This document shows positions 8,614-11,760 of a stretch of 28,205 bases of DNA, piece by piece (the first letter of the stretch is position 1; every line of letters begins with the position of its first letter). The notes beneath the pieces are model-generated. The model was not told the DNA's origin, ran no database searches, and saw nothing but the letters and a program-made list of their open reading frames with translations. Origin of the DNA: Gammaproteobacteria bacterium (GTDB lineage: Bacteria; Pseudomonadota; Gammaproteobacteria; Eutrophobiales; Eutrophobiaceae); contig JBFIIJ010000001.1 of NCBI GenBank assembly GCA_041601315.1, forward strand, positions 1 to 28,205. Reading direction: 5' to 3'. A program made the position numbers and the translations under genes.

Positions 8614-8709
8614 TAGATAAGGCGACTTTCTAGTCTATCATTTAACGACTAAACTATTAATTGAAGCTCGAGTTCATTTAATAAAAAGAATTTAATAAGG
8701 AGAGCACAA

Positions 8710-10005
8710 TTGGCCACATCAATGAAAGCACCTGTCGGTGGTAGAAAAATCTCAATTCGAAATGGAAAATTAAACGTTCCTGATACGCCTGTTATTCCTT
8801 ATATAGAAGGTGATGGAATTGGTCCAGATGTATGGCAAGCCTCACATCGAGTTCTTGATGCCGCTGTCGAAAAAGCATACGGCGGTAAAAAAGAAATAAA
8901 GTGGCTTGAAGTATATGCCGGTGAAAAAGCGAATAAATTAACGGGAAATTGGTTGCCCGACGAAACGGTTGAAACCTGTCGAGAGTTTCTGGTTTCTATT
9001 AAAGGACCTTTAACCACACCGATTGGTGGTGGCATTCGATCGTTGAACGTTGCATTAAGACAAATACTGGATTTGTACGTTTGTTTAAGACCGGTTCGAT
9101 GGTTTAAAGGTGTTCCCTCTCCAGTTAAACAACCCGAATTGATCGACATGGTTATCTTTCGTGAAAACACTGAAGATATTTATGCGGGTATAGAGTTTGA
9201 ACAAGGAACAGATGAGAATGCAAAATTCCTTGAGCTTTTCAAAGAAGCTTTTCCTAATCATTATCAAAAAATCAGATTCCCAAAATCATCAGGTATAGGT
9301 ATTAAACCGATATCCCGTGAAGGCACACAACGTTTAGTTCGTGCTGCTATAAAATATGCTATCGATAACGGTCGCAAGAGTATTACCTTTGTTCATAAAG
9401 GTAACATTATGAAATTTACTGAAGGTGCTTTTCGTAATTGGGGTTATGAACTTGCAGAAACGGATTTTAAAGATCAAACCTATAGCTGGGATATCTGGGA
9501 ACGCACTCGTGCAGAAAAAGGAACACAAGCGGCACAGGATGAAATGGCACAGGCAGAAAAAGACGGAAAAATTCTGGTTAAAGACGCGATTGCAGACATT
9601 ACCTTGCAACAAGTATTAACCCGACCCAGTGAGTTTGATGTTATCGCAACTATGAATTTGAATGGCGATTATCTTTCTGATGCACTTGCCGCTCAGGTAG
9701 GCGGTATTGGTATTGCGCCGGGCGGTAATATTAATTACGACACCGGACATGCCATCTTTGAAGCAACGCATGGAACTGCACCTAAGTATGCCAACCTGGA
9801 TAAAGTTAATCCGGGTTCTTTATTACTGTCTGGTGAAATGATGTTGCGCTATCTGGGTTGGACTGAAGCTGCTGATATGGTTATTAATGCAATGGACAAA
9901 ACGATTGCTGATAAAACTGTTACTTATGATTTTGCTCGCTTGATGAAGGGTGCAAAAGAAATCAAATGCAGTGAATTTGCGGATGCTTTAATTTCTAATC
10001 TCTAA
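8710..10005 (+). CDS. icd: NADP-dependent isocitrate dehydrogenase (homodimeric prokaryotic type)
   Basis: [25 protein letters not shown] (phospho-Ser equivalent S111, codon 9040-9042), [25 protein letters not shown] determinants HGTAPKY and [11 protein letters not shown] start with AAGGAG 7 nt upstream (alternative ATG at 8722). Confidence 0.97.
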
Positions 10006-10029
10006 AACTTATAAACGAGTTATACGACT

Positions 10030-11760
10030 ATGTCGGAAAGAGATCTGATTGCTGAATGCTCGCAGATAATATACGACGGGTTTATTCGATATAACAGCGA
10101 CTTTCATCGAATGACAAAACGTGCGCGGACACGTTTTGAACAACGCGATTGGAAAGGCCATCAACAGGATATTGTTGATCGTATAGATCTTTATGAAAAA
10201 TCAGTACGGCGTGCCGTTCTCGCTTTGCGTACTCTCCTTGACTACCGTGTTAATGATGAACATCTCTGGCATGAAATAAGAAGTTATTTTTCTGATCGTT
10301 TAAATGAAGTTCCTGATAATGATTTCATAAAAACGTTTTTCAATTCAACGACTCGTCGTATTTTCGGAACCGAAGGTATCGACCCTGATATTGAGTTCAT
10401 TTCATCCGGGCCATCAGATGATCTTCGACTAATTATGTCGCTTAATATTCGTCGTTATCCTTACTGGGGCTCACTTAAAAAAATATTTCAAACCATTCTT
10501 GATGATTTTTCATTTCGAATTCCTTATGACGACGTAGACAAAAATGCAGAACGTATTGCCAAAGTAATTGAAGCACATTCAAAAGAACACGTTGATGATG
10601 ATGTTGAATACTTACGTTTTGAATTTATCGATACATTCTTTTATCAAGCTGCACGAGCCTATCTGGTTGGAAAACTAATTCTTAGTGAAGATGAAGTGCC
10701 TATTGTCATTGCGTTTAAAAATGAACAAGGAGGCATTAGTGTTGATGCCGTTTTTCTTGATGAAAAAGAGATCAGTCTTATTTTTGGTTATACCCGTTCT
10801 TATTATTTTGCTGACCCAAACTCAGTCATTGGTGCTGTTCACTTTCTCAAATCGATACTTCCTAAAAAACCAATCGATGAACTTTATACTGTATTGGGTC
10901 GTTTACGTCAGGGTAAAACAGAACGTCATCGAACATTCACTCAACATCTTAATAACACGCGGGATAAATTTATTCATGCAGAAGGTGACACAGGCCTTGT
11001 CATGATCGTGTTTACATTACCTTCTTACAATCTTGTCTTTAAAGTCATAAGAGATAAGTTTGGTTATCCAAAAACAGTTTCAAGAAACGATGTAATAGGA
11101 AAGTATAAACTTGTATCAAAGCATGACCGTGCGGGAAGACTTATCGATACACAGGAATTCCTGAATCTGGAATTTCCATTAAACCGTTTTTCCAGAGAGC
11201 TTAGAGAAGAATTACTTGATGCCGCATCAGAGAGCGTAAAAAAAGAAAATAATAATTTATTATTACAACATGTCTATATTGAAAGACGAGTGCGTCCATT
11301 AAATCTATATATAAATGAAGTTTCTTATGAAGAAGCTGTTTCTGCTGTGGTTGATTATGGTCAGACTATTAAAGATTTGGCTCAAACAAATATATTTACT
11401 GGTGACCTGTTATTAAAGAACTTTGGCGTGACTCAACATAACCGGGTTATCTTTTATGATTATGATGAAGTTGCTCTGGTAACCGAATGCAATTTTAGAG
11501 ACATTCCTGAAGCAAGTGACTTTGAAGATGAAATGCTGGCCGACACCTGGTACTTCGTTGCTGAGAACGATATTTTTCCGGAAGAGTTTATTCGCTTCCT
11601 TTCAATGAATGATGAATTAAAAATGGAATTTATGAAATATCACAAAGATTTGTTAACCGCTGAATATTGGCGACAAGTTCAACAACAACACTTAAGGGGA
11701 GAAGTTTCATTGGTTGTTCCCTATACATCGACAACGTCAAAACTTAATACGTTCGATTAA
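10030..11760 (+). CDS. aceK: Isocitrate dehydrogenase kinase/phosphatase
   Basis: RARTRFEQRDW, IFGYTRSYYF, GRLRQGKTE, LVFKVIRDKF (ATP-binding Lys), HDRAGRLIDTQEF, GDLLLKNFGVT, VIFYDYDE, DIFPEEF. Starts 24 nt after icd. Confidence 0.95.
   Translation: MSERDLIAECSQIIYDGFIRYNSDFHRMTKRARTRFEQRDWKGHQQDIVDRIDLYEKSVRRAVLALRTLLDYRVNDEHLWHEIRSYFSDRLNEVPDNDFIKTFFNSTTRRIFGTEGIDPDIEFISSGPSDDLRLIMSLNIRRYPYWGSLKKIFQTILDDFSFRIPYDDVDKNAERIAKVIEAHSKEHVDDDVEYLRFEFIDTFFYQAARAYLVGKLILSEDEVPIVIAFKNEQGGISVDAVFLDEKEISLIFGYTRSYYFADPNSVIGAVHFLKSILPKKPIDELYTVLGRLRQGKTERHRTFTQHLNNTRDKFIHAEGDTGLVMIVFTLPSYNLVFKVIRDKFGYPKTVSRNDVIGKYKLVSKHDRAGRLIDTQEFLNLEFPLNRFSRELREELLDAASESVKKENNNLLLQHVYIERRVRPLNLYINEVSYEEAVSAVVDYGQTIKDLAQTNIFTGDLLLKNFGVTQHNRVIFYDYDEVALVTECNFRDIPEASDFEDEMLADTWYFVAENDIFPEEFIRFLSMNDELKMEFMKYHKDLLTAEYWRQVQQQHLRGEVSLVVPYTSTTSKLNTFD

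Follow-up and report, generated by a model that had tools for sequence, protein, structure and literature searches.

The isocitrate dehydrogenase kinase/phosphatase AceK and its substrate, isocitrate dehydrogenase (IDH), are the founding example of protein phosphorylation in bacteria. In 2011, Yates et al. reportedly found the stringent AceK binding sites to be kept only in Gram-negative bacteria, with the IDHs that carry a helical hairpin lying outside the substrate classes. Substrate prediction in this field rests on the class of the recognition segment of the IDH. In Escherichia coli IDH, residues 239–275 form the segment recognized by AceK, and the helical hairpin of Bacillus subtilis IDH is said to prevent the action of AceK (PMC3521221). 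This premise, stated in the first-pass annotation of the DNA described here, is repeated in a 2025 paper, where an insertion-free segment is used as the criterion for phosphorylatability (PMC12707098). According to the same paper, the small NAD-dependent IDHs of Stenotrophomonas maltophilia and Xanthomonas sacchari are phosphorylated at Ser80 by their own AceK. We analyzed a stretch of 28,205 nucleotides (referred to as the window) from contig JBFIIJ010000001.1 of a gammaproteobacterium of the family Eutrophobiaceae, in which an icd gene for an IDH of the hairpin class (class C) stands directly upstream of aceK. We regard it as probable that the two products form a cognate AceK/class C IDH switch, inherited in a large and so far unrecognized AceK clade.

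The icd product was matched by the Pfam family Iso_dh with 321 bits, and it exceeded the cut-offs of NF005425 (714.8 bits; cut-off 490) and TIGR00183 (685.8 bits; cut-off 567). By this equivalog profile match, and with the Ser in its GGGIRS motif, the protein is a type I homodimeric NADP-IDH. The motif GTAPKYA at residue 355 is one that we take to be of the NADP type. Ser111, named at first pass as the phospho-acceptor, is indeed kept, within GIRSLN. The best solved relative was B. subtilis IDH (1HQS; 669 bits), and the alignment with it was gapless across residues 256–286. When E. coli IDH was aligned with the window IDH (565 bits), a gap of 13 residues fell exactly at these residues. Judged by its length and by the gapless alignment with 1HQS, the recognition segment is of class C, the helical-hairpin type of B. 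subtilis and A. thiooxidans, and the same alignment predicts the hairpin fold for it. A class A (beta-strand) segment is not what this IDH has, the 13-residue insertion being present. The longer, Bacillus-type segment described at first pass was therefore recovered, together with the assignment of this IDH to a class reported as a poor AceK substrate. The hairpin core (W260, R265, G271, A275, and G286) is common to the window IDH and B. subtilis IDH; hence, the hairpin itself is not obviously remodelled. When a protein search was carried out with the window IDH, the matches listed were close relatives throughout, none below 82% identity, and yielded no broader phylogeny.

The aceK product was matched by AceK_regulatory (PF20423; 280 bits, residues 12–310), AceK_kinase (PF06315; 353 bits, residues 312–566), and NF002804 (641 bits; cut-off 488). 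Five residues, K338, D459, N464, D477, and D479, were invariant in the AceK alignment A1, and they correspond to Lys336, Asp457, Asn462, Asp475, and Asp477 of E. coli AceK. Asp457 of the E. coli enzyme has a catalytic role. For the other four, catalytic or ATP-binding roles have been described (PMC9138534, PMC6591243). As read from its sequence, the window AceK is a full-length enzyme with a regulatory and a kinase domain, and kinase/phosphatase activity is predicted for it. Its substrate recognition loop, the counterpart of residues 484–510 in E. coli, is of E. coli-type length, with 12 of 23 residues identical, in agreement with the divergence noted at first pass.

The two genes lie on the same strand, as had been annotated (Table 1). 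When the spacer between them was scanned, no terminator-like site or hairpin appeared. Together they make up a two-gene unit that is probably read as a single transcript; the sequencing runs containing the stretch, consulted for co-transcription, were marine metagenome DNA runs only and none was RNA. The assembly (2.69 Mb in 477 contigs, 94% complete) has a single aceK. Three proteins of the Iso_dh family are encoded in it: LeuB, the window IDH, and an IDH of about 340 residues on contig C219. Monomeric IDH was searched for in this genome, and none was found. Isocitrate lyase (ICL) is encoded on contig C48 and malate synthase G on contig C178, both away from icd-aceK. A glyoxylate shunt is thus available for AceK to serve, and the view of the locus as a dedicated icd-aceK unit, rather than an aceBAK operon, holds.

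Within the genus, aceK was found in 19 of 22 other genomes, and it was also found in both other genera of the family. When the loci whose contig extends far enough upstream were inspected, a hairpin-type icd was observed directly upstream of aceK in 16 loci of the genus and in the two remaining genera, gapless over the insertion in all of them. The arrangement is therefore inherited and is not a local oddity. The pairing, far from being unique to this genome, is conserved in the family and recurs in other lineages. Three members of the genus (G008, G012, and G018) were without aceK and also without a class C icd, and all three kept the small IDH and ICL. Another member, G024, has the icd-aceK pair and lacks an ortholog of the small IDH. 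The co-loss in the former three and the pattern in G024 show AceK tracking the class C IDH rather than the small one.

Monomeric IDH (PF03971) is encoded in G008 (C6:121199-123400) and in G012 (C35:53909-56110), the only two of these three that were checked. In the genus, the role of NADP-IDH seems to be filled by either the icd-aceK cassette or the monomeric enzyme. It may be noted that the third Iso_dh member of G024 (L087:579-1598, + strand) is a divergent protein of 340 residues that is without the GGxRS substrate loop. Its best NCBIfam match was PRK08997, with 195 bits against a cut-off of 510, and it fell far below every IDH cut-off.

In a wider survey, species-level genomes were scanned with an alignment of the AceK clade, and the 80 nearest AceK loci were taken. 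The first-pass annotation had proposed a survey of icd-aceK neighbourhoods for co-occurrence with the insertion, and a class C icd was found to adjoin aceK in 32 of the 80 loci. These IDHs were all gapless over the insertion. In 30 loci the class C icd (69–83% identical) was upstream on the same strand (spacer below 80 nt in 18 of these), and in two, from a Thermoanaerobaculia and an Eisenbacteria metagenome-assembled genome (MAG), it was downstream of aceK. An IDH with a shorter segment was near aceK in five loci, and a small IDH was present in none of the 80. Among the linked genomes are members of Steroidobacteraceae and Woeseiaceae, an Ectothiorhodospiraceae MAG, and the cultured Peristeroidobacter soli JW-3. 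Nine loci, for the most part labelled Steroidobacteraceae, have 0.7–1.35 kb between icd and aceK; the gap in one of the surveyed loci (L105, 4859–5946) encodes a 152-residue protein and a NUDIX-like protein, named by its sequence motif, and these genes were judged incidental.

Linked genomes outside the family were also examined for the small IDH, and 20 of 21 had no ortholog of it. Four of the linked genomes, G467 (which includes a 3.9-Mb contig), G469, G472, and G476, have LeuB and the class C IDH as their only Iso_dh members, and all four have ICL. Monomeric IDH was searched for in G467 and G469, and none was found. Since the class C IDH is the sole candidate in such genomes, the IDH substrate of AceK there, if any, is the hairpin enzyme. 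These sole-IDH genomes are the strongest argument that the AceK of this clade accepts a class C IDH. In eight other icd-aceK genomes of Steroidobacteraceae and Woeseiaceae (G470, G471, G473, G474, G475, G479, G480, and G484), we noticed a third Iso_dh member, possibly another IDH type, with 270–290 bits over a match of about 1107 nt in a long open reading frame.

To place the pairing within the phylum, we used an even sample of 401 genomes, 80 of which have AceK; the IDH class was read by comparing the genomic length of the IDH match with the span of the query. In about 60 of the 80 AceK genomes, the IDH is of the E. coli class, which is 13–15 residues shorter. An IDH of class C length occurred only in the genus of the window and in G260. 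IDHs near the window IDH (E ≤ 1e-185) were present in three of the 401 genomes, all of them with AceK. Compared with the AceKs of this sample that have an E. coli-type IDH as partner, the window AceK showed 33–41% identity. In the AceK tree, the family, G260, and a Xanthomonad-like family stood together, apart from every AceK whose partner is an IDH of the E. coli class (aLRT 91 and 86), and the AceKs of Xanthomonas and Stenotrophomonas formed the sister clade of the family's AceK. A tree of the AceK clade showed linkage in two of three gammaproteobacterial subclades, and also in G260 inside the third, the Lysobacterales subclade. No IDH is found near aceK in most members of the latter, Xanthomonas and Stenotrophomonas among them. 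On the simplest reading of this tree, linkage to a hairpin IDH would be ancestral to the AceK clade, Xanthomonas and Stenotrophomonas would have lost the long IDH, and their AceK would work on the small one.

Some further long IDHs were seen near aceK. In G379 (L066) and in Pseudoxanthomonas (L151 and L152), a long IDH with a recognition segment of E. coli length lies about 2–4 kb upstream of aceK. The one in G379 (L066 7310–8884, − strand) is a variant with other indels, including about 24 additional residues inserted near residue 192, and a LysR-like gene stands between icd and aceK. Full-length AceK homologs of 39–45% identity were also observed on contigs labelled Gemmatimonadota, Chloroflexota, Acidobacteriota, Desulfobacterales, Myxococcota, Actinomycetota, Chitinophagales, Chthoniobacterales, and Eisenbacteria, where errors of MAG binning are possible (loci L136, L139, L141, L142, L144, L150, L153–L159, L162–L166, L169, L171–L173, and L175). 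The Gram-negative genera named in a review (PMC9138534) span a narrower range than these labels.

From the linkage, the sole-IDH genomes, and the co-loss, the adjacent class C IDH is the likely cognate substrate of AceK. In the mechanism that we propose, AceK would reversibly phosphorylate Ser111 of the adjacent NADP-IDH despite its Bacillus-type hairpin. Once phosphorylated, the NADP-IDH would be shut off and isocitrate would flow to isocitrate lyase instead, and the small NAD-type IDH would probably stay outside the switch or be a secondary target. The AceK clade, which stands apart from that of E. coli, Pseudomonas, and Burkholderia and whose members are typically linked to a hairpin icd, would tolerate the hairpin or use it.

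The complex of AceK (residues 5–576) with a single IDH chain (residues 5–431) was modelled with custom paired alignments. The median ipSAE score over three runs was 0.41, the best of three controls scored 0.00, and the result was graded as weak support. In calibration, which is rough for custom alignments, 58 of 80 solved complexes and 2 of 110 mismatched pairs had reached the mark; scores no higher than 0.60 were found in only seven of the 80 solved complexes, and in both mismatched pairs that passed. The recognition loop held most of the confident contacts. These joined AceK residues 492–523, i.e., the loop and the turn that follows it, to IDH residues 100–106 and 113, which flank Ser111, and to residues 333–366 on the nucleotide side. 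A prediction of the complex had been suggested at first pass as a check; it did place the loop at the active site beside Ser111, and no confident contact fell on the insertion.

The first-pass annotation had gone further and described a co-evolved kinase and substrate. In the linked AceKs, position 503 is mostly Arg, 506 is mostly not Pro, and 509 is mostly aromatic; where the partner is of the E. coli or the small IDH class, AceK has Ser or Ala at 503, Pro at 506, and Ser or His at 509. The raw counts at 503 and 506 track linkage: Arg503 occurred in 27 of 35 linked and 2 of 51 unlinked AceKs, and non-Pro506 in 28 of 35 and 7 of 51, respectively. It may be noted that unlinked AceK genomes often hold a class C IDH elsewhere, so that linkage is not equal to presence. 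When covariation of the loop with linkage was scored over the only seven phylogenetically independent contrasts, about 3.4 went in the same direction and none in the opposite one (p about 0.25), which makes this an underpowered test, and the genus of the window itself has Leu503. With a non-significant trend over seven contrasts and Leu503 in the genus, co-evolution of the AceK loop and the IDH insertion is a reasonable hypothesis and not a result, one that the raw counts suggest. A strict scan for specificity positions between class C-linked AceKs and those of the E. coli class returned nine columns, none of them in the recognition loop, and was uninformative on recognition.

Taking these observations together, we lean slightly towards the view that the helical insertion is no general barrier to AceK, that a distinct and widespread AceK clade has the hairpin IDH as its native substrate, and that Arg503 and non-Pro506 contribute to this. 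The clade in question would comprise marine gammaproteobacteria, Steroidobacterales, Woeseiaceae, and basal Lysobacterales, with relatives in Acidobacteriota and Eisenbacteria. Several points weigh against such a native pairing. Many genomes of the AceK clade carry their class C IDH away from aceK. The insertion was not among the confident contacts of the model, in which the IDH was a monomer, whereas AceK is said to recognize the IDH dimer, and the weak pass of the complex may reflect the memory of the modelling program for the solved E. coli complex. The co-loss of the two adjacent genes in three members of the genus may have been one deletion event. No class C IDH is known to be phosphorylated by a cognate AceK, and our literature search, whose coverage was incomplete, turned up neither a study of linked icd and aceK genes nor one of AceK together with an IDH that bears the insertion. 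Finally, the genome encodes a small NAD-type IDH, of a class reported as AceK substrate, that is 49–55% identical to the sole type I IDH found in 15 AceK-bearing genomes.

This small IDH, on contig C219, is a rival substrate that the first-pass annotation had overlooked. In place of the KY of the window IDH it carries a DI motif, which by the established cofactor rules we take to mean use of NAD. Its Ser at about residue 82, in GGGFRS, compares with Ser80 of the S. maltophilia enzyme (PMC12707098), and the protein was about 53% identical to the small IDHs in AceK-bearing genomes of the Stenotrophomonas/Xanthomonas family. AceK might then act on the small NAD-IDH while the hairpin NADP-IDH escapes, the linkage serving only to co-express an alternative IDH with the regulator. 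The published hindrance of AceK by the insertion (PMC3521221, PMC12707098) fits this explanation, as does the place of the family beside the Xanthomonad clade in the AceK tree. Moreover, a long type I IDH was missing, at the threshold applied, from 16 of the 80 AceK genomes of the phylum sample, and 15 of these 16 carry the small class. However, AceK is gone from the three members of the genus that keep the small IDH and ICL, the small IDH is missing in G024 and in nearly all linked genomes elsewhere, the class C enzyme is the sole candidate in G467 and G469, and no small IDH stands beside aceK in any of the surveyed loci. We consider this explanation unlikely.

It could also be that AceK acts on both IDHs, so that the entire oxidative branch is throttled at once. 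Both enzymes have the acceptor Ser in a GGGxRS loop, and members of the AceK clade occur with either partner class, G260 and G379 holding both. Against this, the recognition segments of the two enzymes are very different, the small class being without the insertion, and AceK is described as highly stringent in published work. To us, a double target appears improbable. That the linkage is a historical relic, with an AceK that is inactive on the hairpin IDH, or is a weak kinase or mainly a phosphatase/ATPase, and no physiological switch, is very improbable: the poor phosphorylation of B. subtilis IDH reported for the E. coli kinase and the missing confident contact on the insertion would agree with it, but the catalytic residues and both domains are conserved across a deep clade, the spacing below 80 nt is kept in 18 distant species genomes, and ICL was found in every genome checked.

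The gene of the small IDH (G000 C219, L002:1486-2508, − strand) showed an unusual 5′ end. No ATG, GTG, or TTG is present near the N terminus. A conserved GGGAGA Shine–Dalgarno box is present in the family. In four of the five members checked (this gene and its relatives in L062–L064 and L091), ATT follows it after 6 nt; the fifth has GTT at the position of the ATT, with ATC before it. This suggests a non-canonical ATT start for the gene, and perhaps translational control.

The positions of the features are collected in Table 1. Translation of icd from an in-frame ATG at 8722 would give an IDH of 427 residues, which is the form in the protein database. For the promoter-like candidate, consensus matches of the 9/12 kind were no commoner in this DNA than in shuffled sequence. 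The stop codon of the downstream membrane protein gene directly abuts that of aceK.

Table 1. Features of the icd-aceK locus, in positions of the window.
Feature	Position	Strand	Remarks
Promoter-like candidate 5′ of icd, TAGATA-16-TATCAT	8614–8641	+	Consensus scan, 9/12 matches
icd, NADP-dependent isocitrate dehydrogenase	8710–10005	+	431 aa, TTG start
Ser111 codon, predicted phospho-acceptor (= E. coli Ser113)	9040–9042	+	GIRSLN motif, E. coli IDH alignment
Recognition-segment region with 13-residue Bacillus-type insertion, IDH residues 256–286	9475–9567	+	
icd-aceK spacer	10006–10029	+	24 nt, from sequence
aceK, bifunctional isocitrate dehydrogenase kinase/phosphatase	10030–11760	+	576 aa
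AceK substrate recognition loop NFRD...WYFV, residues 488–510	11491–11559	+	
Membrane protein (predicted), 209 aa	11761–12390	−	Convergent with aceK; no Pfam/NCBIfam match

The evidence for the barrier comes from the E. coli kinase acting on foreign IDHs, and B. subtilis IDH was a poor substrate rather than a null one; a cognate kinase that handles the hairpin would hence be a moderate surprise and not a radical one. Given the conserved pairing, which includes genomes with a sole IDH, the rule that insertion-bearing IDHs are resistant is probably clade-specific and not general. If this is true, the class of the recognition segment is no predictor of IDH phosphorylation, and the switch extends well beyond the lineages now credited with it. 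The pairing would also offer natural kinase–substrate pairs, one of them in a cultured organism (P. soli JW-3), for studying how recognition was re-solved. Metabolic reconstructions of abundant uncultured gammaproteobacteria from the sea and from sediments would gain a post-translational switch of the glyoxylate shunt.

Compared with the described systems, the locus is nearest to the E. coli aceBAK switch (3LCB, 4P69) in its enzymes. Both AceK domains, the catalytic Lys, Asp, Asn, and Asp-x-Asp residues, and the length of the loop are alike, and so are the type I NADP-IDH with its acceptor Ser and the presence of ICL and malate synthase in the genome. Unlike in E. coli, aceK here follows icd and not aceA, and is not the distal gene of an aceBAK operon; the IDH segment has 13 more residues and is of the helical type seen in B. 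subtilis, and the AceK falls in a different clade. B. subtilis IDH (1HQS), the class C reference, is like the window IDH through the insertion and in its hairpin core, but the B. subtilis genome, taken as a control, gave no AceK match, whereas here the same IDH class is encoded 24 nt upstream of aceK. With S. maltophilia and X. sacchari the genome shares a sister-clade AceK and a small IDH. In seven survey loci of Xanthomonas and Stenotrophomonas, however, no IDH lay within 6 kb of aceK, unlike the linked hairpin icd here, and four genomes of a Stenotrophomonas-like genus that were searched had no long type I IDH. As in Pseudomonas aeruginosa and P. putida (PMC13660168), there are two IDH isoenzymes, of which only one is expected to be under AceK control. 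In those species, the controlled isoenzyme is a dimeric ICD of the E. coli class and the second one is monomeric, whereas here the second one is a small NAD-type dimer, and the monomeric IDH replaces the cassette in sister species.

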